DNA of 64,000 nt from an uncultured Candidatus Saccharibacteria bacterium (GTDB lineage: Bacteria; Patescibacteriota; Minisyncoccia; Minisyncoccales; Staskawiczbacteraceae). Under the pieces are notes generated by a model. It had not been told where the DNA came from, searched no databases, and saw nothing but the letters and a program-made list of their open reading frames with translations. The stretch lies in assembly GCA_964599285.1 (NCBI GenBank), contig CAZREI010000001.1, positions 34,562-98,561 of the forward strand, in the 5' to 3' direction. Made by a program: the position numbers and the translations under genes. How positions within the stretch are numbered: position 1 is the first letter of the stretch; the number at the start of each line of letters is the position of its first letter. Shown in pieces: positions 11,253 through 30,552 of this stretch.

Positions 11253-11310
11253 CTTATTGTGCGACCCCGCTTAGCGGGGTCAAGGGTCCGCTGGGCGGAC
11301 CGACAAAATC
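11253..11310 (+). repeat. family B double-hairpin element
   Basis: 'cttattgtgcgaccccgcttagcggggtcaagggtccgctgggcggaccgacaaaatc'. Confidence 0.85.
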
Positions 11311-11396
11311 AGGGGTTTAACCTCTTTTTTTGTTTGCGTTTTGGACGGCTGGTGCTATATTAAAATCATTCACTGGGATTCATCGTCATTATTAGC

Positions 11397-12284
11397 ATGA
11401 GGTTGCAATACAAATTATTTTTATTTGGGCTATCGGTGGCGCTGGTTTTTTTCGCTCGGTTTTCAATTGCGGATGCTTTGCCGGCGCCTGGTGTAGTTAT
11501 TTCTTCTGATCATCTTGCGCAAGCTGACACGCTTTTGGTGGCCGTAAAAAATGAAACTGTAAAACCAGCGGGAACTTTGGGCAACGTAAAGCTACGATTT
11601 TTTCAAAGTCAAAATCAACAGGATTGGATTGCTTTAGTGGGCATGCCTGTTAGCAAAAAACCTGGTGATTATTTGCTCACCGTTACGGTCGCCGGCAAGG
11701 CGCCGTTTCAAAAAACCATTACCGTGGCGGCGCGGGAATTTCCGGTTACCGAATTGGTGTTAACGCCCCAGCTTTTACAAGAAGGCTACACGGCCAAAAA
11801 AATTATCAAAAATATCACCACCAAAGAAAATGTGCGTTTGGAAAAAGTGCTAAGCGTTATCCATAAAAAATCTTATATTGCAAAACCTTTTATTGACCCG
11901 CTCAAAGAAATTAAAATCGTGGGACCGTTTGGCGATATCCGGGCAACTAAAAAATATAAAATCCAGCACTTGGGGGTTGATTTGGCGGCACCCATCGGCA
12001 CGCCGGTGCTGGCGGTCAACGATGGCAAAGTGGTGTTTGAAAAAAGTTTGCCTGATTATGGCAACACACTGGTCATAGATCACGGCCTGGGATTATATTC
12101 GCTATATCTGCACCTTAAAACCTTCAACGTAAAAACGGGGGCCGCGGTAAAGCAAGGGGACACGGTGGCGCTATCGGGAAACACCGGGTACGTGACCGGC
12201 CCGCACTTGCATTTTTCTATCAAGATGCGCGGAGCTGCATTAGATCCACTAAAATTCATCCAAACCACGCAAACCACTTGGTAG
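11397..12284 (+). CDS. M23/LytM-family peptidoglycan endopeptidase
   Basis: Signal peptide, then 'HLGVDLAAPIGTPVLAVNDGKVV', 'GNTLVIDHG' and 'GNTGYVTGPHLHFSI'. Confidence 0.85.
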   Translation: MRLQYKLFLFGLSVALVFFARFSIADALPAPGVVISSDHLAQADTLLVAVKNETVKPAGTLGNVKLRFFQSQNQQDWIALVGMPVSKKPGDYLLTVTVAGKAPFQKTITVAAREFPVTELVLTPQLLQEGYTAKKIIKNITTKENVRLEKVLSVIHKKSYIAKPFIDPLKEIKIVGPFGDIRATKKYKIQHLGVDLAAPIGTPVLAVNDGKVVFEKSLPDYGNTLVIDHGLGLYSLYLHLKTFNVKTGAAVKQGDTVALSGNTGYVTGPHLHFSIKMRGAALDPLKFIQTTQTTW

Positions 12285-12286
12285 AT

Positions 12287-12343
12287 TTATTATGCGACCC
12301 CGCTTAGCGGGGTCAGGGGTCCGCTTAGCGGACCGACAATTTG
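12287..12343 (+). repeat. family B double-hairpin element
   Basis: 'tttattatgcgaccccgcttagcggggtcaggggtccgcttagcggaccgacaatttg'. Confidence 0.85.
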
Positions 12344-12447
12344 TTGACAATAGAGTAGTTTAATGATAGTATAAAACCGTAGCCCGGCGAAGAATTTTTC
12401 TTCGTTTTTGACAACCTAATCCCTTTGAAGTTTGAAGGAGGAATGCG

Positions 12448-13188
12448 ATGGTTCCCATTGTGGTTATGTTTCCTGATCACCAGGGCAAAGACGCTTTAGA
12501 TGGAGAATTTGTAACTCGGATAAAAAACACCCTGCCCAAAGCCGTCATCGTCCCGATTCTCAATGGCCTTCCATTAGCAGAGTTAGCTACCATTGCTGGC
12601 AAGGTTTCTGGATCCTGCGAGCCAGTGGTCGCGGCCGATGCTAGGGGACTGCTCGACACTTTAATTGCTGGCTATGTCAGGGTATTGGGTCAATATCCTT
12701 TGGCAACGGTCGTCCGTCTTGATACGGCGGAACATCCCGTTACGGATATTCCCAGGTTGATCGAAGTGGCCATAAACATCAATGGAATGGCAATCGGCGA
12801 TCTTGAATTCGAGCCAGGAACGCTAAGGAGTGATTCCATTGATGAATTTGCCCACCTTGATCTTTTTCCGGAACTCTATCGCCAAACCACCCGCGGCAAG
12901 CTTTCCATTTCCTGCGCGCATGGGTACCAAGCGTTTGCTCCGGGCGTATTGCGGGCAGTCCTTACAGCCGCTCAATGCATCGTCCACCGCGTCCAACAAG
13001 AGTTGGGGCCGATAAGCTGGGGGTTTGACGGGGCAATGGCACTGGGAGCAGTTGGCATTGGAACACCCGTTACCGTTGAAAAAGTTGAAGCTCAAGTACT
13101 GCGCGATCGCCCTCGCGCAAAGGTGGCCAGCCAATTTGCCGGAGCTTTGCGGATGTGCCTGGCCGCCGGCCAGCTATTTCAGTACTAG
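12448..13188 (+). CDS. orphan hypothetical protein, visibly more GC-rich than its neighbours
   Basis: Strong SD 'gaaggagg' upstream of the ATG, a 246-aa Ala/Gly/Leu-rich product, and its own terminator. No motif recognised. Confidence 0.55.
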   Translation: MVPIVVMFPDHQGKDALDGEFVTRIKNTLPKAVIVPILNGLPLAELATIAGKVSGSCEPVVAADARGLLDTLIAGYVRVLGQYPLATVVRLDTAEHPVTDIPRLIEVAININGMAIGDLEFEPGTLRSDSIDEFAHLDLFPELYRQTTRGKLSISCAHGYQAFAPGVLRAVLTAAQCIVHRVQQELGPISWGFDGAMALGAVGIGTPVTVEKVEAQVLRDRPRAKVASQFAGALRMCLAAGQLFQY

Positions 13189-13193
13189 TCCAT

Positions 13194-13245
13194 AGCGTTT
13201 TGCGGGATTCGTGAAAACGAAATTACCCGCAAAACGCTTTTTTAT
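13194..13245 (+). terminator. rho-independent terminator
   Basis: 13-bp stem agcgttttgcggg...cccgcaaaacgct followed by ttttttatttt. Confidence 0.7.
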
Positions 13246-13272
13246 TTTATAAAAATATCGTACAATGGAAAA

Positions 13273-13884
13273 ATGAAACATACGTTAACATCAAACGAAA
13301 TAGTTTTTGGGCTTGCATTTGATATTGAGAAAGATAAAGACCGTAAGAGCAAGTATCGGCCGGCAAAAAGAGATTTAAATTCAAATAAAGAAGTATTTGC
13401 TGACGTTAGGCTTGAAGCATTTGCCAATGTAATACGACTTAACATTACGAATAAATTAATTGTCGTGGGAGGAAATGAGCAAAAATATAGTAAAGAAACA
13501 CCACTCATTAATCGGGGGTGGGCCGTTTGCGAGATGCTTATTCATGATTTTGGCGTTAACCCAAAACAAGTGGGGTATTTAGAGTCCAAAGGAAATACTG
13601 CCGGTAATATTATGGCCATTAAAAAGTACGTTAAGAAAAATAAGATAGGCAAATATTTTATCGTCAGTAATTTTTACCATTTACCAAGAATTAGCGCGGA
13701 GTTAATCTTAAGAAAAAACCCTGCCATTACTTTGCCAGCAGAAGCATTCTGGTTATTAGACCATAATAATTCTACAAAAAAACTGGCAACTCTTTTGGGT
13801 AATGGGCCGTTGGCACAAAGGATTGTTAAAGAGTCCCAGGGTATTATGCAAAAAATTTCCAGAACTAATAAAAAACTACTGTAA
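13273..13884 (+). CDS. DUF218/YdcF-like protein
   Basis: 'IVSNFYHLPRISAELILR' resembles the DUF218 'SxxYHxxRA' region. Assignment is from memory. Confidence 0.5.
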   Translation: MKHTLTSNEIVFGLAFDIEKDKDRKSKYRPAKRDLNSNKEVFADVRLEAFANVIRLNITNKLIVVGGNEQKYSKETPLINRGWAVCEMLIHDFGVNPKQVGYLESKGNTAGNIMAIKKYVKKNKIGKYFIVSNFYHLPRISAELILRKNPAITLPAEAFWLLDHNNSTKKLATLLGNGPLAQRIVKESQGIMQKISRTNKKLL

Positions 13885-13895
13885 TCATTCGTTTC

Positions 13896-13942
13896 AAAAA
13901 AATACCATAATTTCCGCACCTGCGAAAATGATGGTATTTTTT
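13896..13942. terminator. bidirectional terminator between convergent genes
   Basis: aaaaaaataccat...atggtatttttt. Confidence 0.55.
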
Positions 13943-13957
13943 CAGATTTTTTTTGGG

Positions 13958-14590
13958 TTATTTTGCCAAATCCGTAAAAATTACAAGACGTTGCGTGTAG
14001 GTTTTTTGGGTGGCAATCCAATCTCCGTTGCAAGTAATCAAATTCAGATGCACGCCGTTTTTGTTGCTAAACACTTCCGAAGCGCGGTCGTTTGGGTTGT
14101 AGATTTTGCTGCCGGTGACCACAAAAGAAAATCGCTTGCCTTTATCGTCCTTGACGTAAACAACGTCGCCTTTTTTAAGCTGACTAAGGTTGTCAAACAC
14201 TGAATGCGCCCCGCTTTTCCATGGGCCAAAGTGTCCGGTCAGGATGGCGCTGCCTTGCGAGCCGGGCCGCGGACCGAGTTTAAACCAAGCCACTTGGTAA
14301 GGCCCTTTTGGCACGCCAATAGACCCGTCAGCTGCTAATCCAACGCTGATAACTTGCGCGTCCACCTTGATACTCGGAATACTCAAATGCACGGGCAGGC
14401 CGGGGCCAGTTTGGGTGCTTACGGCACTGGCTTGGAAATTTTGGCTGGCTGCTTGGGTTGGCGACTGGGACGCTCCAGGAATAATTTGCGTTGGTAAATT
14501 CTGGCCAGAAAATCCATAAAAAACTGCCAGCGCAATCAGCGCCAATCCGCCAAGAATGATGGATATGTTTTTTACGATTTTTGTAGCCAT
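13958..14590 (-). CDS. sortase-family transpeptidase
   Basis: N-terminal TM anchor, 'AILTGH' (His) and 'LNLITCNG' (TLxTC-type Cys). The start was moved to ATG 14590 because the upstream ATG lies inside a repeat. Confidence 0.8.
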   Translation of the reverse strand: MATKIVKNISIILGGLALIALAVFYGFSGQNLPTQIIPGASQSPTQAASQNFQASAVSTQTGPGLPVHLSIPSIKVDAQVISVGLAADGSIGVPKGPYQVAWFKLGPRPGSQGSAILTGHFGPWKSGAHSVFDNLSQLKKGDVVYVKDDKGKRFSFVVTGSKIYNPNDRASEVFSNKNGVHLNLITCNGDWIATQKTYTQRLVIFTDLAK

Positions 14591-14605
14591 AATATAAAAG
14601 CTTCT

Positions 14606-14677
14606 CGTCATTGCGAGGCGCGCCGAAGCAATCTTTTTGACAATGCCTGGATTGCCGCACTGCGGTTCGCAATGACG
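14606..14677. repeat. family C (GTCATTGCGAG...GCAATC) inverted pair
   Basis: 'cgtcattgcgaggcgcgccgaagcaatc' and 'gattgccgcactgcggttcgcaatgacg'. Confidence 0.8.
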
Positions 14678-14735
14678 AAAAGAAGAAATCTCCTCAACTA
14701 AGAGCCGAGCGACTTGCCCGGCTCTTAGTATCTGG

Positions 14736-15809
14736 CTATTTTGCTATCCATGCGCGTCGTGCTCCAACTGCAACCAGGAACAATCCCAACACTGACAAGC
14801 CGGCTAAGGCTGCTGCGTTCCATCCTGAAGGCTGGTCAGCGGGGCCAAATCCGGTGTTAGGCAAAACGGGAGTAACCGATGTGGGCGATACGGTAAACAG
14901 CACATCGTTGGACATTCCTCCTGGAGCGGGATTGGTTACCGATACCACGTACAATCCCGTAGTTCCAAGATCAGAAGCCGGAATCAATGCCGTCAGCCGA
15001 TTGGAAGACACAAAGCCAGTGGTACGGTTCAATCCATTGAAAGATACCTGGGAATTTGGGGTAAAGTTGCCGCCAAGGACGGTCAGGGTGAAAGCACCAC
15101 TGCCAACTACCGCTGACGATGGCAAAATGCTGGAGATAACCGGAGTGAGGTTTGGATTTGGGGTAGGGGTAGGAGTGTTGCCCGTAACAATAAAAGCCAA
15201 TGCATTAGAGGTTGCTGCTCCCGGATTGGTTACGGTAACGTTGAAGCTGCCGGAATTTACCAGGTCTACCGCGTTAATCGGAACGGTCAGTTGGTTGCTG
15301 GAAATGTAGGCCGTGGATCGAGCTAATCCGTTGACGTTCACCAAAGCTCCGGAAACAAAGCCTGAACCATTGACGGTAAGCGTGAATCCCGAACTTCCCA
15401 TAGCCGCCGATGAGGGTGACAAAGAACTGATGCTGGCTACCCCGTTTATATTGCCCACGGTAAACGTTACGCTGTTGGACGTTCCGCCGCCAGGACCCGG
15501 ATTGGTTACGTTAACGCTGAAACTTCCCGTGTTGCTGGTGTCGGAAGCAAAAACTGAGGCATCTACCTGGTTGGAAGAAATATAAGTAGTTGGCCGGCTG
15601 GATCCATTAAAGTTTACCATGGCTCCCGGCACAAAGTTACTGCCGTGGACAATCAGGGTAAAACCTGCCGTGCCCGCTGCCACCGATGACGGAACCACGT
15701 TGTTGACAAAAGGAACGGGGTTATCAGCCAGGGCCGCGAAAGGGATCATGGCCGCTAGTGCCAAACCCGTTGCTAAAACTGCGATAGATCGGATATTTTT
15801 AGTGTTCAT
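14736..15809 (-). CDS. LPXTG-anchored surface protein with three IPT/TIG-like repeats
   Basis: Signal peptide and three ~95-aa repeats ('P.ISS..PSS...G..GFTL.V.G..F..G..V.FNG..R.T..SSN'). C-terminal 'LPNTG' plus hydrophobic helix plus 'RRAWIAK'. Confidence 0.85.
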   Translation of the reverse strand: MNTKNIRSIAVLATGLALAAMIPFAALADNPVPFVNNVVPSSVAAGTAGFTLIVHGSNFVPGAMVNFNGSSRPTTYISSNQVDASVFASDTSNTGSFSVNVTNPGPGGGTSNSVTFTVGNINGVASISSLSPSSAAMGSSGFTLTVNGSGFVSGALVNVNGLARSTAYISSNQLTVPINAVDLVNSGSFNVTVTNPGAATSNALAFIVTGNTPTPTPNPNLTPVISSILPSSAVVGSGAFTLTVLGGNFTPNSQVSFNGLNRTTGFVSSNRLTALIPASDLGTTGLYVVSVTNPAPGGMSNDVLFTVSPTSVTPVLPNTGFGPADQPSGWNAAALAGLSVLGLFLVAVGARRAWIAK

Positions 15810-15902
15810 AGGTTTTTTATTTAATGTGATTATATTGGATTATATTGGGTTCGACCTTTATACTTAACCAGACGTTGGAGAGCGTAAAATCTTTGTTATT
15901 TC

Positions 15903-15930
15903 AGTCGTCGGCCGCGCGCGGCCGACGACT
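15903..15930. repeat. perfect 28-nt GC-rich palindrome
   Basis: agtcgtcggccgcg|cgcggccgacgact, in a divergent intergenic region. Confidence 0.8.
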
Positions 15931-16903: not shown

Positions 16904-17079
16904 AACCGTGAATCACGAAATGGACAATAAGAAACATATTTCTTGTCTTTCCCCCAATTTTTGGCTATAAATTCGCTATAATTTTTCGGCGGACCCTTTG
17001 GGTAAGCCGAAAAATTCTATCAAATTTCTATCTCAAAAATTGGGGAAAATCCAAAGAAACCATTTCGTGATTCACGGTT
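16904..17079 (-). repeat. family A element, copy 4
   Basis: TIRs are CCGTGAATCACGAAATGG...CCATTTCGTGATTCACGG with the core in reverse orientation. It ends 10 nt before the ATG at 17090. Confidence 0.85.
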
Positions 17080-17089: not shown

Positions 17090-19717
17090 ATGCCCCAATC
17101 CGCAGCGGTTTTTGAATTTACTTCTTATACATTTGAACCCGATAAAAAAAGGGTTCTTTTCCGTTACACCACCAAATTTAAGGATCGACCACCGCTGCGT
17201 TTTACCGAAACTATTTTGTTGCCAAAGATTCCCAACCTTGATCGCATTCCGCCAGAACCTTTAAAAAAACTCCTCCAAAGCCTGCACTTAATACTGGGCA
17301 TCAGTTATTACAAGTTTTATTGCCCGCCCGCCGTAGCCTTGGCGAAGGAGGATGCGAAACTGTCAAAACAAGAAGCCGAGTTTTGGAACATCGTATACAA
17401 AAAAGGCCTTGGCGAATTTTTTTACAAAAACAATCTGAATCCAAACCGCGCTCCAAAATTTCCGTACGGGGTAACCCGTAACCAGGAACCCGTAACCAGT
17501 AAATTACGCGTTACGGGTTACGCGTTACCGGTTACCAAAAGATCTCTCGTGGGCATCGGGGGAGGAAAAGACTCCATCGTCGCCGCGGAATTATTGAAAG
17601 AAGGCGGGTTTGACGCCACCGCGTTTTACGTTCAAACCAGCAGCGACTCATCGCTGGTAAATAGCATCATCAAAAAAACTGGCCTGCCGTCGCTGAAAAT
17701 TCGACGATTGCTAGACGAAAAAGTGCATCAACCTCATCTTTATGATGGCCATGTTCCCGTGTCAGCCATCCTGGCATTTTTGGGATTTTTTGCCGGCATA
17801 CTTTACGGTTTTGATTATGTCATCGTGGGCAACGAATACAGCAGTAACTTTGGCAACCTCAAATACAAAGGTTTAGACATTAACCACCAGTGGAGCAAGT
17901 CGTTTGAATTTGAAACGCTTTTTCAAACCTATGTAAAAACTTTCATCACGCCTGACATAACCTATTTTTCTTTGCTGCGGCGGTTTTACGAAATCCGGAT
18001 TGTAAAATTGTTTGCAAGTCATAAAAAATATTTTCCGCATTTTTCAAGCTGCAATTCCAATTTCAGAATCGCGGAATCACGCGGAAATTTACGCGGAAAA
18101 ATGCGGAATAAATGGTGTGGTCGATGTGCTAAGTGTGTTTTTGTATTTACACTTCTGTCGGCGTTTTTACCAAAAAAAGAATTGGTTAACATTTTTAAAA
18201 AAAACTTGTACCAAGATAAAACTCTCCTGCCATTATTTAAAGATATTTTGGGATTTGGCGCGATGAAACCTTTTGATTGCGTCGGCACGTTTGAAGAAGC
18301 GCAAACCGCGATGTGGCTGGCCAAAAAAAGATTCGCCCGTGATTTTATTATGCGACAACTTGGCCGGCGCGTAACATTTCACCAAGAAGTTTTTACGACC
18401 AACAAAAACGCCCGCATTCCCGAACAGTTTACTTTCTTGGGAATGGATAGCACGTTGATAGCCGGATTTGGCAACGAGGGAAGTGCTACCAAGAAATACC
18501 TTGAAAAATATTACCCAAAATTAAAACTTGGGATAGCCGAAATATATAAAAATAGGGAAGTGTTCCGCGTAGTTCCGCGTGAATTTCCGCGTAGTTCCGC
18601 GGCTTTTGATCTGGCAATCAAAACTCCAGGCATCAAAAAAGAACTGATTAAAATTCCGTACACCACCGCCACCAATATTTTTTTCTCAAATATTTCCGGC
18701 AAATATCTTACTATCGGCGTTACCGGCAGCAAAGGAAAAAGCACCACCGCGTCACTCATTTTTCATATCTTAAAAACCGCCGGAAAAAATGTTCACCCCG
18801 TTAAATCCGCCAAAAGCGGTGTTTCGCAAACTGCGAAACAATTTAACAGGGTAAAACTATTGGGCAACATTGGAAAACCCATGCTAGAAAATTTGCTCCA
18901 TCCTATAGCAAAAAATACCATTTTTGTCCTGGAACTTTCCAGTTACCAGTTAGATGACCTGCGGTTTTCTCCCGATATTGCCGTGGTGACAAATTTATTT
19001 CCGGAGCACTTGGATTTTCACGGTAGTCTTCAACATTATTACGATGCCAAAAAAAATATCATCCGCTACCAGCAGCCCGACCAATATTTTGTCTACGATA
19101 AAAAAACTGAACCGTGGCTAAAAGAATATCGAGGCAAGCCGGTGCCATTTGCCAAAACAATTCCGGTTCCAAAACACCAAATTCCATTATTGGGTCAGCA
19201 CAATGAAAGCAACATTAAAGCGGCCATCGCCGTCGCTCGGATTTTAAAAATTCCGGAAGCAAAAATAAAAAAAGCCATTAAATGTTTTAAAGGCTTACCG
19301 CATCGATTAGAAAACGTAGGAACATTTAAGGGAATTATTTTTTACGACGACGCCATTTCCACCACGCCCGAATCAACCATCATGGCCATCAAAGCCTTGC
19401 CAGGCGTGCAAACTATTTTTTTGGGAGGCAGCGACCGCGGCTACGATTTTTCGCAGTTGGAAAAAACCTTAAAACAATATAAAATAAAGAACGTGGTGCT
19501 GTTTCCCGACACCGGCTCGCGCATCATAAAAAACACCAAGGGTTTGAATATTCTAAAAACTCGCAGCATGGAAAAAGCGATTGCCTTCGCCTACAAACAC
19601 ACCACACCAGGACACATCTGTTTATTGTCCTGCGCATCGCCCAGCTATTCATTATGGAAAAACTTTGAACACAAAGGCACCCAATTTACCAGATTGGTAA
19701 AAAAGTTGGCTAAGTAG
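17090..19717 (+). CDS. murD: fusion protein: PP-loop-like N-terminal domain (possible MurL-type epimerase) plus UDP-MurNAc-L-Ala--Glu ligase MurD
   Basis: The C-terminal half carries 'IGVTGSKGKSTTASL', 'LELSSYQLDD', 'NLFPEHLDFHGS' and 'GLPHRLE'. The N-terminal ~455 aa carry 'VGIGGGKDSIVAAELL' and 'WCGRCAKC'. Confidence 0.85.
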   Translation: MPQSAAVFEFTSYTFEPDKKRVLFRYTTKFKDRPPLRFTETILLPKIPNLDRIPPEPLKKLLQSLHLILGISYYKFYCPPAVALAKEDAKLSKQEAEFWNIVYKKGLGEFFYKNNLNPNRAPKFPYGVTRNQEPVTSKLRVTGYALPVTKRSLVGIGGGKDSIVAAELLKEGGFDATAFYVQTSSDSSLVNSIIKKTGLPSLKIRRLLDEKVHQPHLYDGHVPVSAILAFLGFFAGILYGFDYVIVGNEYSSNFGNLKYKGLDINHQWSKSFEFETLFQTYVKTFITPDITYFSLLRRFYEIRIVKLFASHKKYFPHFSSCNSNFRIAESRGNLRGKMRNKWCGRCAKCVFVFTLLSAFLPKKELVNIFKKNLYQDKTLLPLFKDILGFGAMKPFDCVGTFEEAQTAMWLAKKRFARDFIMRQLGRRVTFHQEVFTTNKNARIPEQFTFLGMDSTLIAGFGNEGSATKKYLEKYYPKLKLGIAEIYKNREVFRVVPREFPRSSAAFDLAIKTPGIKKELIKIPYTTATNIFFSNISGKYLTIGVTGSKGKSTTASLIFHILKTAGKNVHPVKSAKSGVSQTAKQFNRVKLLGNIGKPMLENLLHPIAKNTIFVLELSSYQLDDLRFSPDIAVVTNLFPEHLDFHGSLQHYYDAKKNIIRYQQPDQYFVYDKKTEPWLKEYRGKPVPFAKTIPVPKHQIPLLGQHNESNIKAAIAVARILKIPEAKIKKAIKCFKGLPHRLENVGTFKGIIFYDDAISTTPESTIMAIKALPGVQTIFLGGSDRGYDFSQLEKTLKQYKIKNVVLFPDTGSRIIKNTKGLNILKTRSMEKAIAFAYKHTTPGHICLLSCASPSYSLWKNFEHKGTQFTRLVKKLAK
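17464..17536. repeat. intragenic in-frame hairpin (CGTAAC/GTTACG words)
   Basis: 'ggtaacccgtaaccaggaacccgtaacc...gttacgggttacgcgttaccggttacc' encodes 'GVTRNQEPVTSKLRVTGYALPVT'. Confidence 0.7.
18067..18113 (+). repeat. intragenic array of 4x CGCGGAA
   Basis: 'aatcgcggaatcacgcggaaatttacgcggaaaaatgcggaa' encodes 'ESRGNLRGKMRN'. Confidence 0.7.
18558..18602 (-). repeat. intragenic array of 4x TTCCGCG (inverse of the 18067 array)
   Basis: 'ttccgcgtagttccgcgtgaatttccgcgtagttccgcgg' encodes 'FRVVPREFPRSSA'. Confidence 0.7.
18796..18851. repeat. intragenic in-frame compound hairpin
   Basis: Outer stem ccccgttaaat/atttaacaggg with inner hairpins ccgc-caaaa-gcgg and tgtttcgc-aaact-gcgaaaca. Encodes 'HPVKSAKSGVSQTAKQFNRV' between the MurD P-loop helix and 'LLGNIG'. 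Confidence 0.7.
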
Positions 19718-21399: not shown

Positions 21400-21463
21400 G
21401 ATTGCCGCGCTGCGGCCTCGGCCAGCTGAGCTGGCCAGACCCGCTCAGCGGGTCGCAATGACG
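21400..21463. repeat. family C element
   Basis: 'gattgccgcgctgcggcctcggccagctgagctggccagacccgctcagcgggtcgcaatgacg'. Confidence 0.75.
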
Positions 21464-21536: not shown

Positions 21537-22649
21537 ATGAAAATACTTTTTACCGGTGGGGGAACGGGCGGCCACTTGTTTCCCGTCATTGCCATCGCCC
21601 GGGAACTCAAGCGCTTGTCGCAGGACCCGTCCATTAGCCTGCACTACATTGGTCCCGCGGACAGATTGGGCAGCGCGGTTTTGGCCCAGGAAAACATTGC
21701 CATTCATTCCATTGTTGCCGGAAAACTGCGCAACTATTTTTCTTTACAAAATATCAGCGACGCGCTTTTTTTTATTCCCCTTGGATTTTTGCAAAGCTTT
21801 TTTTTGTTGCTTTTTATCCGACCCAATCTGGTTTTCAGCAAAGGCGGCACCGGATCGGCCCAGGTGGTACTGGCCGCCAGAATTTTGGCCATCCCGATAT
21901 TCATTCACGAATCCGATTCGGTAGCCGGCCGCGCCAACAAGCTGGCCTATTCGTGGGCCAAAAAAGTGTTTGCCTCATTTGAAAAAACTGATTACTTTGA
22001 CCCGTCAAAATCCGTGGTAGTGGGCAACCCGATATTAAAAGAAATCACCGAAGGTGACAAAAAAACCGCAAAAGATATTTTCAATCTTGCACTGCAAAAA
22101 CCGGTTTTACTCTTTTTGGGAGGTTCGCAAGGCGCCCAGCCCATCAACGATTTTATCCTTGGCATTTTGCAGGATCTGACAAGAAGTTACCAGGTCATCC
22201 ATGTCTGTGGCAAAAAAAATGAAACAGCAGTCAAAGAAGAGTCTGACGTGATTTTGACTGGCGACGCAAAAGCGCAATACCATGTTTTTGGATTCCTCAA
22301 TGAAATAGAACTAAAACATGCCTTCGCCGTCGCGGACTTGGTGGTTTCGCGGGGCGGGTCGGGCAGCATTTTTGAAATCGCCGCTTGCGGCAAACCCAGC
22401 ATTATTATTCCTTTGCCATCATCGGCCAACAACCACCAAGCCAAAAATGCCTATGCGTACGCCAAAAATGGCGCGGCGCTGATCATAGAACAAGACAACC
22501 TGACCCCAAACTTTTTTCTGGAAAAACTGCGCAATTATTTTTCACATCCGGAAGAGTTGGAAAGCATGAGCCAAGCCGCCCTGCAATTTGCCAAGCCACT
22601 GGCAGCCAAAGCGATTGCAAGAGAAATCTTGGAATTTCTCAATGCGTAA
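21537..22649 (+). CDS. murG: UDP-GlcNAc:lipid I N-acetylglucosaminyltransferase MurG
   Basis: 'KILFTGGGTGGHLFPVIAIA', 'RGGSGSIFEIAACGKPSIIIPLP' and 'HQAKNA'. Confidence 0.9.
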   Translation: MKILFTGGGTGGHLFPVIAIARELKRLSQDPSISLHYIGPADRLGSAVLAQENIAIHSIVAGKLRNYFSLQNISDALFFIPLGFLQSFFLLLFIRPNLVFSKGGTGSAQVVLAARILAIPIFIHESDSVAGRANKLAYSWAKKVFASFEKTDYFDPSKSVVVGNPILKEITEGDKKTAKDIFNLALQKPVLLFLGGSQGAQPINDFILGILQDLTRSYQVIHVCGKKNETAVKEESDVILTGDAKAQYHVFGFLNEIELKHAFAVADLVVSRGGSGSIFEIAACGKPSIIIPLPSSANNHQAKNAYAYAKNGAALIIEQDNLTPNFFLEKLRNYFSHPEELESMSQAALQFAKPLAAKAIAREILEFLNA

Positions 22650-22788
22650 TTGATCTAATTAACCTAATTATTCTAATTGATCTAATCAAATCCCAATGCC
22701 AAAATGTCCAAACCGTTTTAGCAATTAGTCATTCACGTTTTTAGACATTCCTTAGAATAATTAGGTTAATTAGAACAATTAGAATAAT
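22648..22788 (+). repeat. family F long hairpin (AATTAGAATAATT arms), copy 1
   Basis: Arms 'taattaacctaattattctaattg' and 'cttagaataattaggttaattagaacaattagaataatt'. It ends 7 nt before the gltX ATG. Confidence 0.8.
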
Positions 22789-22795
22789 TTAAAAA

Positions 22796-24265: not shown

Positions 24266-24275
24266 AACTATCGTG

Positions 24276-24309
24276 AATGGCTAATTCGCACGAATTAGCC
24301 ATTTTTATT
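24276..24309 (+). terminator. hairpin terminator after gltX
   Basis: aatggctaattcg..cgaattagccatt followed by tttatt. Confidence 0.55.
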
Positions 24310-24360
24310 GTGCGACCCCGCTCAGCGGGGTCAAGGTCCGCTTAGCGGACCGACAGTTTG
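24304..24360 (+). repeat. family B double-hairpin element
   Basis: 'tttattgtgcgaccccgctcagcggggtcaaggtccgcttagcggaccgacagtttg'. Confidence 0.85.
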
Positions 24361-24479
24361 GCTTGGCAAAAAGATAAAACTACTCTATACTGAAGTTCAG
24401 CACCTACTACATGGCTCATCTTAGTTTTGCCTTCGCCAAACCAAAGATGCGCCATACTCATACACAGGGAGGATTTGTC

Positions 24480-25028: not shown

Positions 25029-25046
25029 AAATGGCAAATCCCGACA

Positions 25047-25080
25047 GAAGCCCTGGATTCAATTTCAGGGCTTTTTTATT
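25047..25080 (+). terminator. rho-independent terminator
   Basis: aagccctg-gattcaattt-cagggctt followed by ttttatt. Confidence 0.65.
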
Positions 25081-25119: not shown

Positions 25120-25174
25120 CTTATTGTGCGACTCCGCTCAGCGGAGTCAGGGTCCGCTTAGCGGACCGACAAAT
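25120..25174 (+). repeat. family B double-hairpin element
   Basis: 'cttattgtgcgactccgctcagcggagtcagggtccgcttagcggaccgacaaatg' carries a compensated hairpin variant (ACTCCGC/GCGGAGT). Confidence 0.85.
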
Positions 25175-25610: not shown

Positions 25611-26591
25611 ATGGAACAAAGCAATATACCAATCCCAAAACACATAAATAACTTCTTAGATTGGATAGATATTGAAAAAGGATTATCTTCTAAAACTCAA
25701 GAAAATTACCGCAGATTCCTTGAAAAATTTTTGGTTTGGTTGAAAAAAAATAATTTAGAAAGTTTGCTTCCCCACCAGCTAACCAAAGAACATATTTGGG
25801 ACTATAGGGTCCACTTATCACGTCATTCCCCTCGACCCAGCCGACCTGGGTACCCCGATAACCAGCCTTTAAAGAAGATAACCCAAAACTACTATTTAAT
25901 CGCTTTAAGGGCCTTTTTAGGCTATTTTGTGGCCAAAGACATACTTTCCATGCCTCCCGATAAAATAACGCTTTCTAGGCCCGATAAAGAGAAAATAGTG
26001 AAGTTTTTGACACTAGAACAGCTATATAAGCTATTTTTAGCTCCAGATACCTCTACGATGCAAGGATTGCGAGATAAAGCCATATTAGAGACCTTCTTTT
26101 CAACCGGAATGAGAATATCAGAGTTAACTTCTTTAAATCGGGAGCAAATTAAAATCAAACCAGGTGCAAATGAAATAGAACTTGGAATTGTCGGCAAGGG
26201 AGGCAGGGCTAGAACCGTTTATTTTTCAAAAAGCACCGTAGAATCGCTAAAAAAATACCTTGACGCGCGAGATACTCAAAACGATAAAGAAAAGGCATTA
26301 TTTGTAAGTTATAGCGGAAAAAAAAATTCACCACACAGATTAACTCCAAGAGCCATTGAAAAAAACTTAAAAAAATACATCATTTTGGCGGGTCTGCCGG
26401 TCACCACAACCCCCCATGTCCTGCGCCATAGCTTTGCTACTGATTTATTGACCCAAGGCGTGGATTTAAGAGTTATCCAGGAATTTCTGGGACATAAAAG
26501 CATTGTTGCCACTCAAATATATGCCCATGTTACGAGTAAAAAATTAAAAGATATCCACCAAAAATTCCACGGCGAGCCAGGTTCAAAGTAA
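25611..26591 (+). CDS. tyrosine recombinase, XerC/XerD-like
   Basis: 'HVLRHSFATDLLTQGVDLRVIQEFLGHKSIVATQIYAHV' (R-H-R-Y catalytic region) and 'GKGGRARTVYF'. Confidence 0.85.
   Translation: MEQSNIPIPKHINNFLDWIDIEKGLSSKTQENYRRFLEKFLVWLKKNNLESLLPHQLTKEHIWDYRVHLSRHSPRPSRPGYPDNQPLKKITQNYYLIALRAFLGYFVAKDILSMPPDKITLSRPDKEKIVKFLTLEQLYKLFLAPDTSTMQGLRDKAILETFFSTGMRISELTSLNREQIKIKPGANEIELGIVGKGGRARTVYFSKSTVESLKKYLDARDTQNDKEKALFVSYSGKKNSPHRLTPRAIEKNLKKYIILAGLPVTTTPHVLRHSFATDLLTQGVDLRVIQEFLGHKSIVATQIYAHVTSKKLKDIHQKFHGEPGSK
25821..25858. repeat. intragenic in-frame repeat word in the recombinase gene
   Basis: 'cgtcattcccctcgacccagccgacctgggtaccccga' (family C-like GTCATTCC plus a cccag..ctggg hairpin) encodes 'RHSPRPSRPGYPD'. 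Confidence 0.45.
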
Positions 26592-26631
26592 CAAACTGTC
26601 AGCCGTTTTAGTCACTCTCCCCAATCCTAAT

Positions 26632-26729
26632 GTGTCGCACAATAAAACGCTCCTACCCACCTACGAGTAGGAGTGTTTTGTCGGTCGCTAAGCGGACCCT
26701 GACCCCGCTCAGCGGGGTCGCATAATAAG
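26632..26729 (-). repeat. composite: truncated family B tail, 24-nt hairpin module, full family B copy (left island boundary)
   Basis: 'gtcgcacaataaaacgctcctacccacctacgagtaggagtgttttgtcggtcgctaagcggaccctgaccccgctcagcggggtcgcataataag'. Confidence 0.85.
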
Positions 26730-26804
26730 ATTGAGGCAAAGAAAAAGCCCTGCGCATTGCTGACGCCGGGCCTGTTTTTTTTTGCGTGGTAAGCGTGGAT
26801 ACGC

Positions 26805-27512
26805 TTACGGTTTTTGAGCTTGGGGTTGCTGTCCTTGATTCCAAACTTCGATACAGTAGCTGCGATAGTGGTACCTCGAGTCTCCTTCATCTAAAGCCAC
26901 CAAAAGAAGATCAGTATGGACAGGAAAACGCTTCATTGAGCTTGGATTTTCCAGGTGAAAATCTCGCGGGATATGCCGCACCCACAATTCCCGTACCTCA
27001 AATTGTACGTCAGCACATTTTTCCCGCAAAACCTTCATAATCTGTGCCACGGATACAGAAAGACTTTGGTCATTTACATCTATGACTCTTGGAAGCCAAC
27101 TAGCGTCTGTTTGCATGGTTTTAGAGTAATAGACAGCGAAGGCTATACCAAGAATGATACTGGGTAACCCACCGTATTTGCAGGATACCACAAACCAAAT
27201 AGGAGGGTCGGTAAAACATGCCGTAACACCCATCCCAAAAATCCCGAAAAGAGCCAAGATAGCTGCAATAACAATGGGAGGACCTAGGGCGTCGTACAGC
27301 TTTTCATCTAAACGACGGGCGTTACGAACTGCACTATCCATGTATGCTGTCACGGATTCACGCGTAAACGGCTGGATTCCCAGCTGCTCCATGGCCAAAC
27401 ACAGGGGTGTTAACGCCTCGGTTTTTTCGGGGCCAGACTCTTGGTCAGCTTGAGAAGATTCGCTTTCAACTTGAAATCGAATCGGCCGGCGTTCTAACAA
27501 TGCGGTGCTCAC
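26805..27512 (-). CDS. hypothetical membrane protein (island cargo)
   Basis: 235 aa with central hydrophobic helices 'PPIVIAAILALFGIFGMGVTACF' and 'GGLPSIILGIAFAVYY'. No motif recognised. Confidence 0.5.
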   Translation of the reverse strand: MSTALLERRPIRFQVESESSQADQESGPEKTEALTPLCLAMEQLGIQPFTRESVTAYMDSAVRNARRLDEKLYDALGPPIVIAAILALFGIFGMGVTACFTDPPIWFVVSCKYGGLPSIILGIAFAVYYSKTMQTDASWLPRVIDVNDQSLSVSVAQIMKVLREKCADVQFEVRELWVRHIPRDFHLENPSSMKRFPVHTDLLLVALDEGDSRYHYRSYCIEVWNQGQQPQAQKP

Positions 27513-27615
27513 GACGCAATCCTTTCACTCAAGAAAGTAGCAGGAGCCACAAAACGCTTGTGGCAAAAAGAAGGAACTGGTTTTATGCTAACACGAGCGC
27601 GACACCCAGTCAACG

Positions 27616-27671
27616 AAGTCGGTCCGCTCAGCGGACCGAAACCCCGCTTAGCGGGGTTGCACAATAAAAAG
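27616..27671 (-). repeat. family B double-hairpin element
   Basis: 'gaagtcggtccgctcagcggaccgaaaccccgcttagcggggttgcacaataaaaag'. Confidence 0.85.
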
Positions 27672-27711
27672 CACTCTTGTCGCATAATTACTTATTTGCT
27701 ATACTTATACT

Positions 27712-28212
27712 ATGACAGCGAAAATATCAGAATTTAATTTAGCTCAACTTGCCAGCGATGACGGCTGTTTTGATTTGCAGTTTCGCAAGGATACTCGGCA
27801 CGATCGCACCGGCTCCCCCACTTACTATCGCTGGAAGGCGCAATTTATTATTACCCTGCCAAAAGAACAAGTTGACATTTTGGAAAAAGCTAAAAAAACT
27901 ATCGGCTGTGGTACGGTTTCAAAAACTGCTACACAAGCCCGATTTTCGGTCCAGAACATTGATGATATTGCCGATGGCGTAATCCCCTACTTTACCCAAC
28001 ACAAGCTGTCGGGCAATAAAAAACAAGATTTTTCGCTGTGGCAAAAAGCCGTCCAAATTATTTACCAAAATAAGCGGACGCCGCTTTCCAAATGGAAAAA
28101 GAATGATTTGTTGAGCCTTCTGCAAATCCACAAAGCCAGCGCCAAATATAAAATAAAACCCAAAAAATCCAAGTGGATGGAGATGGCACAAGTGTTAGTT
28201 AAAAAACCGTAA
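27712..28212 (+). CDS. LAGLIDADG-family homing endonuclease, single-motif (homodimer-size), free-standing
   Basis: 'FNLAQLASDDGCFDL' is a LAGLIDADG-type motif. 166 aa. 'GVIPYFTQHKLSGNKKQDFSLW' is typical of the family. Confidence 0.75.
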   Translation: MTAKISEFNLAQLASDDGCFDLQFRKDTRHDRTGSPTYYRWKAQFIITLPKEQVDILEKAKKTIGCGTVSKTATQARFSVQNIDDIADGVIPYFTQHKLSGNKKQDFSLWQKAVQIIYQNKRTPLSKWKKNDLLSLLQIHKASAKYKIKPKKSKWMEMAQVLVKKP

Positions 28213-28227
28213 ATACATCAGCAACTT

Positions 28228-28287
28228 GTCATTCCCAGCTCGACTGCCTTTAAAAAAACTCTGGATCCCCGCTTTCGCGAGGATGAC
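28228..28287. repeat. family C variant (GTCATTCC...GGATGAC)
   Basis: 'gtcattcccagctcgactgcc...ctggatccccgctttcgcgaggatgac'. Confidence 0.6.
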
Positions 28288-28323
28288 TAGTGGAGAAAAA
28301 AAGTTGCGAATAACGAAAAGAAA

Positions 28324-28353
28324 GAACCGCAGAAACGCTCTGCGGTTTTTTTG
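28324..28353 (+). terminator. rho-independent terminator
   Basis: aaccgcaga-aacgct-ctgcggtt followed by tttttg. Confidence 0.6.
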
Positions 28354-28368
28354 TTGCGCAAAGGACAG

Positions 28369-28728
28369 TTATTGGGTTTGTGCTGTTTGGTAGGACGGCA
28401 CCACTTCAAACACGATGGCCGTGAAACCAACATACCTTTTTGTTTGGTAGTAGCGCCAGCGACTTGCGTCCTTGTTTGAAACAAGGCTTTGCGCCCATTG
28501 CCGATGCTCCGTTGTATTTTTGGAAACCAACGAATCTTCAATGACTACCGCCACGTAGGCGCAACGATCCCGTTCCGAAAAACTCATTTCTGGCGCGGTT
28601 GTTTCATCCACGAATACCACGTAATCGGGAATGTCTTTTGCGTACGTCGCAACAAAATACGTAACAACATTGGAAGCAACAATCGCCAAAATTACCAGAG
28701 CGTGCCACCGCAGATTTTTAGAAACCAT
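28369..28728 (-). CDS. hypothetical membrane-anchored protein (island cargo)
   Basis: 119 aa with N-terminal TM 'WHALVILAIVASNVVTYFVATY'. Confidence 0.35.
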   Translation of the reverse strand: MVSKNLRWHALVILAIVASNVVTYFVATYAKDIPDYVVFVDETTAPEMSFSERDRCAYVAVVIEDSLVSKNTTEHRQWAQSLVSNKDASRWRYYQTKRYVGFTAIVFEVVPSYQTAQTQ

Positions 28729-28858
28729 CGCAAAACCCCTTTGCGTTAGAAATCGAAGTTATGCAGGTGCTGGGTTTATTGTACTGCGAATGGATGCAAG
28801 AAAAAAGCCCCTCCACACGCGTGTGCGAAGGGGCTTGGCGATACTTTTGAGCATCGCC

Positions 28859-30295
28859 CTAAATCAAGGTCATTGTAGGAGCTGTAACGGGTGGAGTCGA
28901 ATCCATCGTTCCGGTTGTTGCACCAGTCGTAAATTTGACCCACGACAATGCGATGGTCGCGGTTGTTCCCGGCGGAAGGCCACCTATACCCACCGAAGCG
29001 TAAGATACAAATACTGCCATCATCAATCCAGCGCCACCGTTGGGAACGGCAAGATTCAAACCAGTCAGGTATGCAATTCCATTTACCGGAGCCGCGCACA
29101 CCGTTCCTACGCAAATATTGGTAACGGCGTTGTTGGTAACCGTGAACTTCAGTGCGGTAATAGTCAAGGCACCACCTACCGAAACAAAGTTGTAGGTTGC
29201 CTGGGAAGCATTGACAGCTCCACTACTACCGACCGCGATGGATTGCGACGGCGTTGTAAGAGCGGTAACAATCGTGGGGCGGCTCAAATGGCCGATACTT
29301 AGTGTTAAAGTTTGGCCAGTGATCGGGCCGACCGTAGCCGGAATGTTGTCAACCACGCCGATAGACGAAACTGTCAGCATGGTGGCAATGGTGCCGCTGA
29401 TATCTGGACCGGTGTCGGTAAAGATGTCGAGTACCATGGACTGTCCGGACTGCAAGATGTCGTTAACCGAGAATACATCGTTGCCCGTTGGCTGAATGGC
29501 TTGTGAGCCAGAGCCAGTGGTGTCCGAAGTCTTCAAGCCCGAAAAGTTACTGAAAGTCGTGCCCGCCACGGTCGTGGCAATGCTCAAGGAACTGATCCGG
29601 ATAGCTTCCGACGTTCCCAAGTTTTGTAAAACGTAAGAACCAATCTTTACGTTAGTCGTATTGGGCGCAACGGTTTGGTTTAGGTAAGCGGAATTTTGAG
29701 AAACTACCAGTAACGCGGCGGATTTCAAATGGTGGAGCGTTGGACTTGCGCCACCATACGCCACATGGGAATTAGGAACCGGCGTATTGCGCAAGTCGGC
29801 AAAAAACGCCTGGGCTAATTCCACACCAATCTTGTCTCCCGTGAAGTGGCTGCCAAAGTAAGCGACCACTTGCAGATGGATCAAACGATTTGGCCGAGCC
29901 CACGCCGGATAGAAGGTGCGAAAATCAACCACGTCGGTTTGGTAGTTTGCGCGCGCCGCGGCAATAGGGGTTTCGCAGCCATCTCGCGAATCGCCGTTAA
30001 GGTCAGCCAGAAGCCTCATGCCTATGGTATTAGGCCACAAAACTTCGCTTCCCACGGCCGGGACCAACAGCATTTCTGTCAGCCTTGCGTACGATCGGTT
30101 CGTAGTATTGATGGTCATGTCGGCGATCACCCGATTGGTGGCGCCCGGCAAGATGTTCAACGGCCTTTCGGGCAGGTTCATTACCTGCACCATAGGCGGC
30201 ACAACCGGCGGCAGTGGAGGCAAAAAACCTCCTGTCGGCAATTCCCTATACTCCAACTGTTCCAGCGAAAGACGGCAAACATTCTTCTTGGACAT
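28859..30295 (-). CDS. GC-rich secreted beta-rich orphan protein with an 'LxLEQLExR' N-terminal motif
   Basis: 478 aa. N-terminus 'CRLSLEQLEYRELPTG' followed by a Pro-rich stretch, then Thr/Ser/Gly/Val-rich sequence. Confidence 0.55.
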   Translation of the reverse strand: MSKKNVCRLSLEQLEYRELPTGGFLPPLPPVVPPMVQVMNLPERPLNILPGATNRVIADMTINTTNRSYARLTEMLLVPAVGSEVLWPNTIGMRLLADLNGDSRDGCETPIAAARANYQTDVVDFRTFYPAWARPNRLIHLQVVAYFGSHFTGDKIGVELAQAFFADLRNTPVPNSHVAYGGASPTLHHLKSAALLVVSQNSAYLNQTVAPNTTNVKIGSYVLQNLGTSEAIRISSLSIATTVAGTTFSNFSGLKTSDTTGSGSQAIQPTGNDVFSVNDILQSGQSMVLDIFTDTGPDISGTIATMLTVSSIGVVDNIPATVGPITGQTLTLSIGHLSRPTIVTALTTPSQSIAVGSSGAVNASQATYNFVSVGGALTITALKFTVTNNAVTNICVGTVCAAPVNGIAYLTGLNLAVPNGGAGLMMAVFVSYASVGIGGLPPGTTATIALSWVKFTTGATTGTMDSTPPVTAPTMTLI

Positions 30296-30413
30296 TGCAC
30301 GTTCTCCTAAAATATAATGAGCTTTCCTTCACGCTTTTTAGGGCGTATTCCTTCACACGAAAGAATATTTTAGCTTAGCACACTTTGTATATTTTGTCCA
30401 TACTTTGACCAAT

Positions 30414-30552
30414 CTTGTCGGTCCGCTAAGCGGACCTTGACCCCGCTCAGCGGGGTCGCATAATAAAACACTCCTACTCGTAGGTGGGTAGGAGTGTTTT
30501 GTCGGTCCGCTACGCGGACCCTGACCCCGCTCAGCGGGGTCGTATAATATAA
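30414..30552 (-). repeat. composite: family B copy, 24-nt hairpin module (flipped), family B copy (right island boundary)
   Basis: 'cttgtcggtccgctaagcggaccttgaccccgctcagcggggtcgcataataaaacactcctactcgtaggtgggtaggagtgttttgtcggtccgctacgcggaccctgaccccgctcagcggggtcgtataatat'. Confidence 0.85.

Follow-up and report, generated by a model that had tools for sequence, protein, structure and literature searches.

The 64-kb window analyzed here (64,000 nt of contig CAZREI010000001.1, from an uncultured Candidatus Saccharibacteria bacterium) carries a family of short GC-rich double hairpins, family B, that is probably a non-autonomous mobile palindromic element addressed to one point of a host motif, TTATTRTGCGAC^AAA, where the caret marks the insertion junction. 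A first-pass annotation had described a 55-nt repeat whose consensus forms two adjacent GC-rich hairpins. Both hairpins are present, but the consensus splits in two: its outer 12 + 3 nt are a pre-existing host motif, (AATC)TTATTRTGCGAC followed by AAA, and the remainder is the hairpin insert. The sequence examined covers 64 kb of host DNA and, for a second genome (L055/L208; public loci used for comparison carry L numbers), 22 kb, with nine intact copies in all. In each of the nine (eight in the window and one in the other lineage) the insert lies between ...GCGAC and AAA, at a single phosphodiester, and hairpin 1 adjoins the 5' half of the motif. Insertion has recurred at least nine times in two lineages. 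This site- and orientation-specific recurrence in the motif, which includes an in-frame copy within a gene, points to a site-specific selfish insert rather than to a terminator, and we infer that family B is selfish or near-neutral.

The insert is 37–39 nt long, has a GC content of about 74%, and reads YCCGC-TNA-GCGGGGTC-ARG-GTCCGC-TNA-GCGGACCGAC. It is made of two adjacent perfect hairpins, similar but distinct, that abut the insertion junction, and its 3' end repeats CGAC, which gives a 4-nt flanking repeat of the target. The variable positions are confined to the N of the loops and the 3–4-nt linker. When the window is searched with up to three mismatches, hairpin 1 (GACCCCGCTNAGCGGGGTC) and hairpin 2 (GGTCCGCTNAGCGGACC) return nine matches each, against 0.01 and 0.13, respectively, expected from shuffled sequences. 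The double hairpin is the minimum-energy fold, with -18 kcal/mol as single-stranded DNA (z -5.7 to -5.8, both strands) and about -35 kcal/mol as RNA (z -4.6 to -5.1). All 15 proposed base pairs form in each of the nine aligned sequences, in which two pairs show compensated changes and one contains a G-U pair. One of these compensated stems, ACTCCGC/GCGGAGT, had been taken as an argument that the hairpin itself is selected. The stem is real (at 25130, copy 4), and a second compensated pair, AAC...GTT, is found at 27640 in copy 6; the level of covariation is, however, matched by 9 of 500 column shuffles, which makes the two pairs weak support for a selected hairpin, suggestive but not strong. 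At the Rfam gathering score, tRNA-Ala is the sole match in the whole window and family B has none; between 24.2 and 27.8 kb the best sub-threshold E-value is 0.65.

Family B is represented in the window by eight intact copies and one decayed, nested copy, and not by the ten or more first counted; the eight full copies lie where the first-pass annotation had placed them. Four are on the plus strand and four on the minus strand, all within 11.2–30.6 kb, and the other 42 kb of the window contain no copy. Copy 1 (11254–11308, +) follows the tRNA-Ala gene (11177–11250) by 3 nt and precedes a terminator-like hairpin at 11311–11325; its motif half TTATTGTGCGAC (11254–11265) is followed by a 39-nt insert (11266–11304) and AAAA. 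Copy 2 (12287–12340, +; 39-nt insert 12299–12337) has a motif that begins 3 nt past the stop codon of an M23 peptidase gene, and a promoter-like TTGACA-17-TAGTAT begins at 12344. Copy 3 (24305–24357, +; 38-nt insert 24317–24354) is positioned between the terminator hairpin of gltX (24275–24304) and a promoter-like site of rimI at 24363, and copy 4 (25121–25173, +; 38-nt insert 25133–25170, with the compensated stem) lies 45 nt past the rimI terminator (25046–25075), with the ATG of a small conserved open reading frame (ORF) 2 nt downstream.

The minus-strand copies begin with copy 5 (26677–26728; 37-nt insert 26680–26716, with a 1-nt deletion in hairpin 2), downstream of orf235 (26805–27512, −). 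Copy 6 (27616–27667; 38-nt insert 27618–27655) lies where orf235 and a LAGLIDADG gene diverge, in the second of two tandem motifs, and is followed by a promoter-like site (27613–27585); the A of its compensated outer pair is a motif base. Copy 7 (30414–30466; 38-nt insert 30417–30454) lies upstream of orf478, and copy 8 (30498–30550; 38-nt insert 30501–30538), with a diverged motif ATATTATACGAC, downstream of uppS. Private variants are distributed by neighbourhood, an extra G and the loop TTA being common to copies 1 and 2, the loop TCA to copies 3 and 4, and the loop TGA to copies 5, 7 and 8, which suggests local copying. The sequence at 8677–8775 (+), previously listed as a degenerate copy, does hold a decayed insert, TCCGCCAGGGGGATCAAGGTTCGATAAGCAGATTGGC, in the motif TTTATTATG...GCGAC...AAAC, but also a different double hairpin (GGCCCAGCTAAGCGGGCC, CCCCGCCCAGCGGGG) nested 4 nt upstream in the same motif. 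A decayed copy and a nested second insert at one site, together with the common private variants, are signs of ongoing turnover.

The host motif can be traced independently of the hairpins. The 12-mer TTATTRTGCGAC has 14 matches in the window with at most one mismatch, against 0.61 expected, and the motif, as (AATC)TTATTRTGCGACAAA, is located at 11254, 12287, 18345, 24305, 25121, 26634, 26717, 27656, 27679, 30455, 44151, 45519, 46460 and 62058. It was also found in L002–L005, L055, L201, L203, L205, L213 and L214. The gene order of the window is syntenic with Candidatus Staskawiczbacteria metagenome-assembled genomes (MAGs) over uracil-DNA glycosylase, the murL-murD fusion, ftsW, murG, gltX, a xerC-like gene, the LAGLIDADG gene, uppS, L27, pyrG and L9, with protein identities of 57–77%, and the host is regarded here as Staskawiczbacteria-like; the next-best GltX in public data is 77% identical. 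In eight Staskawiczbacteria-like genomes (L002–L005, L055, L201, L203, L205) the motif occurs 3–5 times per 12–22-kb syntenic locus, and CCGCNNNGCGG cores are missing from these loci except for a single murL copy in L055. The orthologous motif sites include two inside murL-murD (codons FYCAT and DFIVRQ), where synonymous positions are conserved, one at or just past the gltX stop codon, one just before the small ORF, one on the opposite strand 29–77 nt past the xerC stop codon in every relative, a tandem pair beside the LAGLIDADG gene and, in one genome, a site after uppS. The occurrence of the motif without hairpins at the same orthologous places in all relatives implies that the motif is older than the hairpins.

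Of about 10 motif copies that lie between genes in the window, 8 are filled, and family B is found nowhere outside the motif. What had been described as a truncated tail at 26632 is one of the unoccupied motifs, TTATTGTGCGAC followed by ACA (26634–26645, −), which is orthologous to the post-xerC motif of the relatives. A second, the variant TAATTATGCGAC followed by AAG (27679–27690, −), is the first of the tandem pair and, on the strand opposite the LAGLIDADG gene, precedes the start of that gene by 22 nt. Within genes, empty motifs are found in murL-murD at codons DFIMRQ (18345–18356, +; conserved at the DNA level in L003, L004, L005, L201 and L205), in a class II tRNA synthetase gene (44151–44162, −, sense orientation) and in tyrS (46460–46471, −, sense orientation), with a one-mismatch copy at 45519–45530. 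All 12 coding occurrences are in sense orientation. The orientation relative to genes that had been ascribed to the repeat is inherited from the host motif. The same sense bias disfavours a DNA-uptake sequence, the many copies disfavour a dif site, and the varying distance to -35 boxes disfavours a fixed promoter element. In viral contigs, the 15-mer motif gave 74 single matches, roughly the chance level by our estimate.

Comparison of orthologous sites provides a series of filled and empty states at six loci, one of them in murL-murD. The site of copy 3 at the gltX 3' end is empty in L004, L005, L055 and L205, that of copy 4 before the small ORF is empty in L002, and that of copy 6 in the tandem pair (27667) is empty in L055/L207, L203 and L205. 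The 3' end of uppS is filled in the window by copy 8, and the uppS-proximal motif is empty in L005. Behind xerC the window has its orthologous motif still unoccupied, next to a filled one (26728).

The ninth intact copy is found in frame inside a gene. The window encodes at 17090–19717 (+) an 875-aa protein, conserved across the relatives, in which a MurL-like epimerase is fused to MurD, and the variable loop after FYCAT is the site of an in-frame insertion in L055, a Candidatus Staskawiczbacteria MAG (GCA_001820305.1, contig MHPC01000007.1). The filled allele (L208) reads TGTGCGAC, the insert TCCGCTAAGCGGGGTCAAGGTCCGCTCAGCGGACCGACA and then AAACATAAAG, and two homologues, 75% (L213) and 71% (L214) identical, have the empty sequences TGTGCGAC^AGACATAAAG and TGTGCGAC^AAATATAAAA. 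The insertion is a clean 39 nt, or 13 codons, that adds the residues PLSGVKVRSADRQ; one extra A added to the 38-nt unit preserves the reading frame, as would be needed under selection. The filled allele is present on 18 contigs from several samples, which implies that it is fixed in that population. This genome has one family B copy in the 22 kb examined, its other motif copies being without family B. The L208 insert differs from the window consensus at one position, whereas the MurL-MurD proteins are 55% identical by BLASTP and 63% in a MAFFT alignment. Such a near-identical insert in divergent lineages points to constraint by the recognition machinery, to horizontal spread, or to both.

The strict family B consensus has no match in public genome, metagenome and viral collections, which confines the family in the strict sense to this genome. 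Searching proteins with the element's three open translations gave no match either, indicating that in-frame copies are rare in public proteins. A loose two-core metagenome scan (CCGCTNAGCGG-N8-14-CCGCTNAGCGG) returned at least 120 stretches, mostly GC-rich tandem repeats; L055 and a group of tRNA-linked relatives are among the matches listed. The latter are double hairpins with CCGC-TNA-GCGG tips, flanked by TCAC...TCAC, that lie directly 3' of tRNA-Glu or tRNA-Lys genes in other low-GC metagenome contigs (L029 2131, L095 125, L032 2063 / L068 4528 and L113 461; also L018, L078, L089, L104 and L015/L098). In L095 and L113 a small gene for a GIY-YIG nuclease lies within about 25 nt after the hairpin; it was discarded as a lead, since the two genes appear to be one orthologous locus and the window has no GIY-YIG gene. 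The idea that GCTNAGC is a restriction site (BlpI-type palindrome) was also set aside, as the sequence is neither enriched nor clearly avoided outside the hairpin tips. Literature searches with the motif and hairpin strings returned unrelated subjects only, and those on palindromic repeats of the candidate phyla radiation (CPR) returned nothing relevant.

As a motif-addressed mobile insert, family B would spread by copy-in, with the machinery supplied in trans. Two routes can be envisaged. The first, a real possibility although short of an even chance, is a single-strand, hairpin-recognizing enzyme with a logic like that of IS200/IS605 transposases and REP-associated tyrosine transposases (RAYTs; REP, repetitive extragenic palindrome). 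The two hairpins would be the left and right ends, and insertion would take place 3' of a short target whose GAC pairs with the foot of hairpin 1, GTC. This complementarity is kept in copy 6 (AAC/GTT) and in the tRNA-linked double hairpins (TCAC...GTG, with TCAC repeated at the far end). The conservation of the CCGC-TNA-GCGG tip across contigs, and of the GCTNAGC core in other repeat families of the window, argues for a protein that reads the tip.

The second route, which we advance tentatively, is a templated process (homing, gene conversion or template switching) in which the insert of a filled motif would be copied into a motif that is empty or broken; the left homology would be provided by the 12-nt motif and the return microhomology by CGAC. 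It is favoured by unrelated GC-rich inserts that occupy exactly the GCGAC^AAA point elsewhere: ACTTCGACTCGCTCCCTTCGACAAGCTCAGGGCAGG... (L055 9410 / L207 17835, −), which after xerC reads GCGAC^ACTTCGACTCGCTCCC...GCAGGC^AAAATGGGG, and ACTTCGGCTTCGCTCGGTACAAAC (L205 11473, + / L206 6011), which after gltX reads GCGAC^ACTTCGGCTTCGCTCGGTACAAAC^AAAAATT. The hairpin pair nested 4 nt away at 8677 agrees with this route as well, the 4-nt spacing being the size of a LAGLIDADG 3' overhang, and so does the syntenic LAGLIDADG gene with motif copies just upstream. Counted against it are that proximity is the one link between this gene and the motif, and that the motif is only weakly symmetric. Both routes fit the data.

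Several points weigh against a motif-addressed mobile element. The RAYT-like transposase that had been suggested as a search target was not found among the 57 ORFs of the window, which is part of the genome only, and neither was an IS200/IS605 or other transposase; the called genes in the 22 kb around the L055/L208 copy likewise include no transposase able to act on the element. The 12–16-nt target is far longer than the 4–5 nt of known IS200/IS605 or RAYT systems, and perfect palindromes abutting the cleavage point are unlike the geometry of IS608. For recombination, a homology of 12 + 4 nt is very short. The basis of the reading is about 64 kb of host genome and nine copies, and the near-identity of the insert across lineages could reflect a functional constraint and not mere mobility.

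A first alternative, which we consider unlikely, is a classical family of REPs or bacterial interspersed mosaic elements (REP/BIME, REPIN), in which a domesticated RAYT (Y1 HUH) encoded elsewhere in the genome spreads the hairpins and the motifs are tolerated sites. Short GC-rich palindromes that occur in pairs, lie between genes and share their orientation, in a genome with several other repeat families, are in line with this proposal, and the tip common to unrelated contigs and other window families again suggests a tip-reading protein. REPs are described as resembling IS200/IS605 ends and as tied to Y1 transposases (PMC3333891, PMC8266576). The assignment of family B to the REP/BIME type, made on first inspection, holds in the broad sense of a dispersed GC-rich hairpin repeat; beyond that, no Y1_Tnp or RAYT is encoded among the window ORFs, no GTAG-like 5' tetranucleotide is conserved, and the stems are perfect whereas those of REPs are imperfect. 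Furthermore, all nine copies sit at one junction of a 12–16-nt motif, and since most intergenic motifs are filled and no copy lies elsewhere, tolerance alone is insufficient to account for their distribution.

A second alternative places the specificity in the target: a host enzyme, LAGLIDADG or XerC-like, would cut or recombine the motif, and GC-rich filler would be copied in during repair, family B being the most successful filler in this genome. We regard this process as doubtful. The LAGLIDADG gene (27712–28212, +) encodes a free-standing, single-domain homologue of 166 aa (PF00961, 3.8e-14) with a conserved catalytic Asp, whose nearest solved relatives belong to the I-OnuI/I-SmaMI family. 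Its orthologues are 60–67% identical and syntenic in all relatives (L201 14709–15206, L203 11628–12140, L205 14550–15050, L207 18264–18788), and motif copies lie 4–22 nt upstream of the start. LAGLIDADG enzymes typically leave a 4-nt 3' overhang, which matches the size of the CGAC repeat, and the unrelated inserts of L055/L207 and L205, as well as the pair nested at 8677, also speak for a process driven by the target. The protein is a speculative candidate for a motif-binding or motif-cutting enzyme. The XerC/XerD-like tyrosine recombinase (25611–26591, +) is syntenic in all relatives, and a cluster of motifs begins just past its stop codon. On the other hand, proximity is all that connects an enzyme with the motif, and a 166-aa single-domain LAGLIDADG protein should act as a homodimer on a near-symmetric site whereas the motif is weakly palindromic. 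Cutting many chromosomal copies would be hazardous, relatives with the enzyme and the motif have almost no inserts, and the conserved CCGC-TNA-GCGG tip is left unexplained.

The segment between xerC and the LAGLIDADG gene provides a further argument for the target-driven process, as it is bounded by motif copies and holds a different gene in each genome. It spans 26592–27711 in the window, 12964–14708 in L201, 10562–11627 in L203, 12928–14549 in L205 and 10966–11320 in L003; the minus-strand gene is orf235 in the window, a sigma-54 activator in L201, a 263-aa ORF in L203 and purD in L205, and L003 and L004 have no gene there. The slot looks like an integration hotspot. The clustering of family B around GC-rich accessory genes, as first reported, was borne out: the neighbours are lineage-specific and somewhat richer in GC, with a content of 0.50 for rimI, 0.47 for orf235 and 0.53 for both orf478 and orf246, against a window mean of 0.44. 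It is conceivable, though distinctly improbable, that (AATC)TTATTRTGCGAC^AAA is a lineage-wide chromosomal landing pad, that is, a multi-copy cleavage or recombination site of a conserved host enzyme (with LAGLIDADG or Xer-type candidates) into which mini-inserts and possibly whole genes are copied. The cargo would comprise family B, the ACTTCG... inserts and the nested hairpins, and possibly rimI and the genes of the xerC-LAGLIDADG slot. If true, CPR bacteria would possess a homing or cassette system with multiple sites, for which no equivalent has been described. A low-probability gene-cassette reading, in which a gene plus a motif is inserted at a motif, fits rimI and the slot but fails for orf478, which has two motifs upstream and none downstream.

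A selected RNA element, that is, a terminator, insulator or 3'-end stabilizer of the upstream gene, appears very unlikely for family B. Seven of the eight window copies do lie just downstream of a gene in sense orientation, as had been noted, but copy 6 is in a divergent promoter region and the L208 copy is inside a coding sequence; all eight are co-oriented with the following gene. The hairpins are very stable, but both strands fold equally well. They are followed by no T-tract on either strand (the tails are ARG... and CGACAAA), and none is among the 41 terminator-like sites that a scan of 10–30 kb recovered, against 28.7 expected, in a genome that uses canonical hairpin-plus-T terminators. 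Separate terminators stand before copies 3 and 4, those of gltX and rimI directly upstream of the hairpins, and after copy 1, and sigma-70-like promoters begin 4–8 nt after copies 2, 3 and 6. Several copies thus have a terminator on one side and the next promoter on the other, and probably fall outside transcripts or at their margins; the terminator function proposed at first is not supported.

Other observations are more favourable to an RNA role. From the stop codon of the M23 peptidase gene up to the next promoter there is no other terminator, and copy 1 has to belong to the trailer of the tRNA-Ala precursor. On other contigs, genes for tRNA-Glu and tRNA-Lys are followed by similar double hairpins, and two base pairs are compensated. 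The same gene junctions nevertheless work without the element in all relatives. A dedicated terminator or stabilizer role is unlikely, and any effect at the RNA level, for instance a block to 3' exonucleases that act on read-through transcripts or on the trailer of tRNA-Ala, would be of secondary importance.

The window holds several other repeats and is unusually repeat-rich for a CPR genome. A hairpin repeat, AAAACACTCCTAC-(10-nt loop)-GTAGGAGTGTTTT, is found at 26646–26679 and 30467–30500, in each case between two motif copies beside family B. It looks like a bidirectional terminator, and the inversion of the loop between the two copies indicates insertion in either orientation. A family with the structure CGTCATTGCGAG-hairpin-GCAATC is located at 14645–14677, 21431–21463, 30555–30587, 55740–55847 and 56111–56143, and its members at 21431 and 55766 carry the family B tip CCGCTNAGCGG. 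A dispersed family of 124–149 nt and 65–95% identity, with a CGGCTTAGCCG hairpin (GCTNAGC tip), is present at 7337–7495, 8922–9080, 9758–9881, 16954–17077 and 40133–40291. Three AT-rich intergenic families comprise ACGAAATACGAA... (31448–31531, 36219–36306, 40623–40659, 41926–42099), AATTAGAATAATTAG... (22642–22790, 50283–50424, 54481–54648) and ACAAATTACAAATCACAAA (11053–11108, 31802–31889). Two very large repeat-containing surface-type proteins are encoded at 36309–40106 (−; 1265 aa, PKD domains) and 55888–61425 (−; 1845 aa, fn3 and peptidoglycan-binding domains), and their internal DNA repeats account for several families of the repeat scan. A large serine recombinase (Resolvase, Recombinase and Zn ribbon domains; 602–1912, −) and a VirD4/TraG-like coupling ATPase (52011–54488, −) may be remnants of integrated mobile elements.

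Genomes of CPR/Patescibacteria are small and usually regarded as repeat-poor. Family B would represent, in a CPR bacterium, an organelle-like or Rickettsia-like invasion by GC-rich palindromes. What sets it apart is its address, a single position in a sense-oriented host motif of 15 nt that is conserved in coding and non-coding sequence across a whole candidate order-level lineage. An essential cell-wall enzyme can acquire 13 residues from such an element and survive the insertion, and the series of filled and empty sites is natural material for working out how a mini-element moves. The analysis also exposes the conserved motif itself, which may be a recombination, cleavage or binding site and, since it collects other inserts as well, is the more intriguing lead. 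In practical terms, assemblies from short reads are interrupted by the repeats: apart from this one, the sole public copy of the locus is a 1.6-kb Logan contig that ends inside the element.

Comparison with known systems places family B near several of them. With REP/BIME it shares short, paired, multi-copy, non-coding GC-rich extragenic palindromes with hairpins like those of transposon ends. In REPs the palindrome is imperfect, a conserved tetranucleotide (GTAG, for example) adjoins the stem on its 5' side, and the RAYT gene is usually REP-flanked. In family B, by contrast, the stems are 100% paired, the 5' flank is the host motif in place of a conserved tetranucleotide, the copies occupy one position of a long host motif, and one of them is in frame within a gene. 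The ends of IS608 are described as subterminal hairpins, and its target as recognized through base pairing with the element (PMC3201880; PMC5934647). IS200/IS605 ends and the miniature elements derived from them, which move by 'peel and paste' single-strand transposition, have in common with family B two subterminal hairpins, the lack of strict terminal inverted repeats, orientation-specific insertion 3' of a fixed sequence, and target bases complementary to the hairpin foot (GAC/GTC and AAC/GTT; CAC/GTG in the related families). They differ in a target of 4–5 nt and not 12–16 nt, and in the absence of a duplication where family B has a 4-nt repeat; moreover, in family B the hairpin directly adjoins the junction, and neither a spacer nor a guide lies 5' of its foot.

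Other candidates fit less well. Integron attC sites resemble family B in that they are hairpin-forming repeats, mark the 3' ends of lineage-specific genes with a common orientation and lie close to a gene for a tyrosine recombinase. They were rejected, as family B has no R''/L''-L'/R' sites, GTTRRRY core or extrahelical bases, and has two perfect hairpins versus one imperfect; the recombinase scores about 220 bits on XerC/D and 96 bits on the integron-integrase model, below the cut-off of 265, and is syntenic in relatives without the hairpins. For a miniature inverted-repeat transposable element, a 4-nt direct repeat is present, but what look like inverted ends, TTGTGCGACCCCGC and TTGTCGGTCCGC, contain bases of the host motif, and no parent insertion sequence lies in the window. 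The tigRNAs of TIGR-Tas systems have two intervals of box C, a variable spacer of about 9 nt and box D in a stem, beside a tas gene (bioRxiv 10.64898/2026.09.09.750476); family B has no variable spacers, and Pfam scans found no Nop-domain gene. CRISPR repeats were rejected because their defining features fail, and intrinsic terminators because no U-tract follows the hairpins.

The closest parallels in behaviour come from selfish palindromes of compact genomes. Rickettsia palindromic elements (RPEs), which can sit in frame inside protein-coding genes (PMC10969869), are likewise selfish repeats in the small, AT-leaning genome of a host-dependent bacterium; they are about 100–150 bp long and frequently intragenic, whereas family B is 38 nt, mostly intergenic and restricted to the motif. 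The GC42 clusters of yeast mitochondria are 42-nt palindromes with short flanking direct repeats that merge and are exchanged by recombination at conserved flanks (PMC4478555). The similarity extends to cassettes of about 40 nt in an AT-rich compact genome, flanking repeats, merging or nesting, and insertion into a protein gene (var1). Allomyces mitochondria reportedly contain double-hairpin elements (Paquin et al. 2000) with an anatomy like that of family B. The mitochondrial elements differ in being organellar, in having 2–3-nt targets versus a 15-nt motif, and in their unrelated sequences. Family B is not a demonstrated member of any of these systems, and its long fixed target is unlike all of them. 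By analogy, it resembles REP/IS200-IS605-type elements most in the way it would work, and RPEs, yeast GC clusters and the Allomyces elements in the way it appears to evolve.

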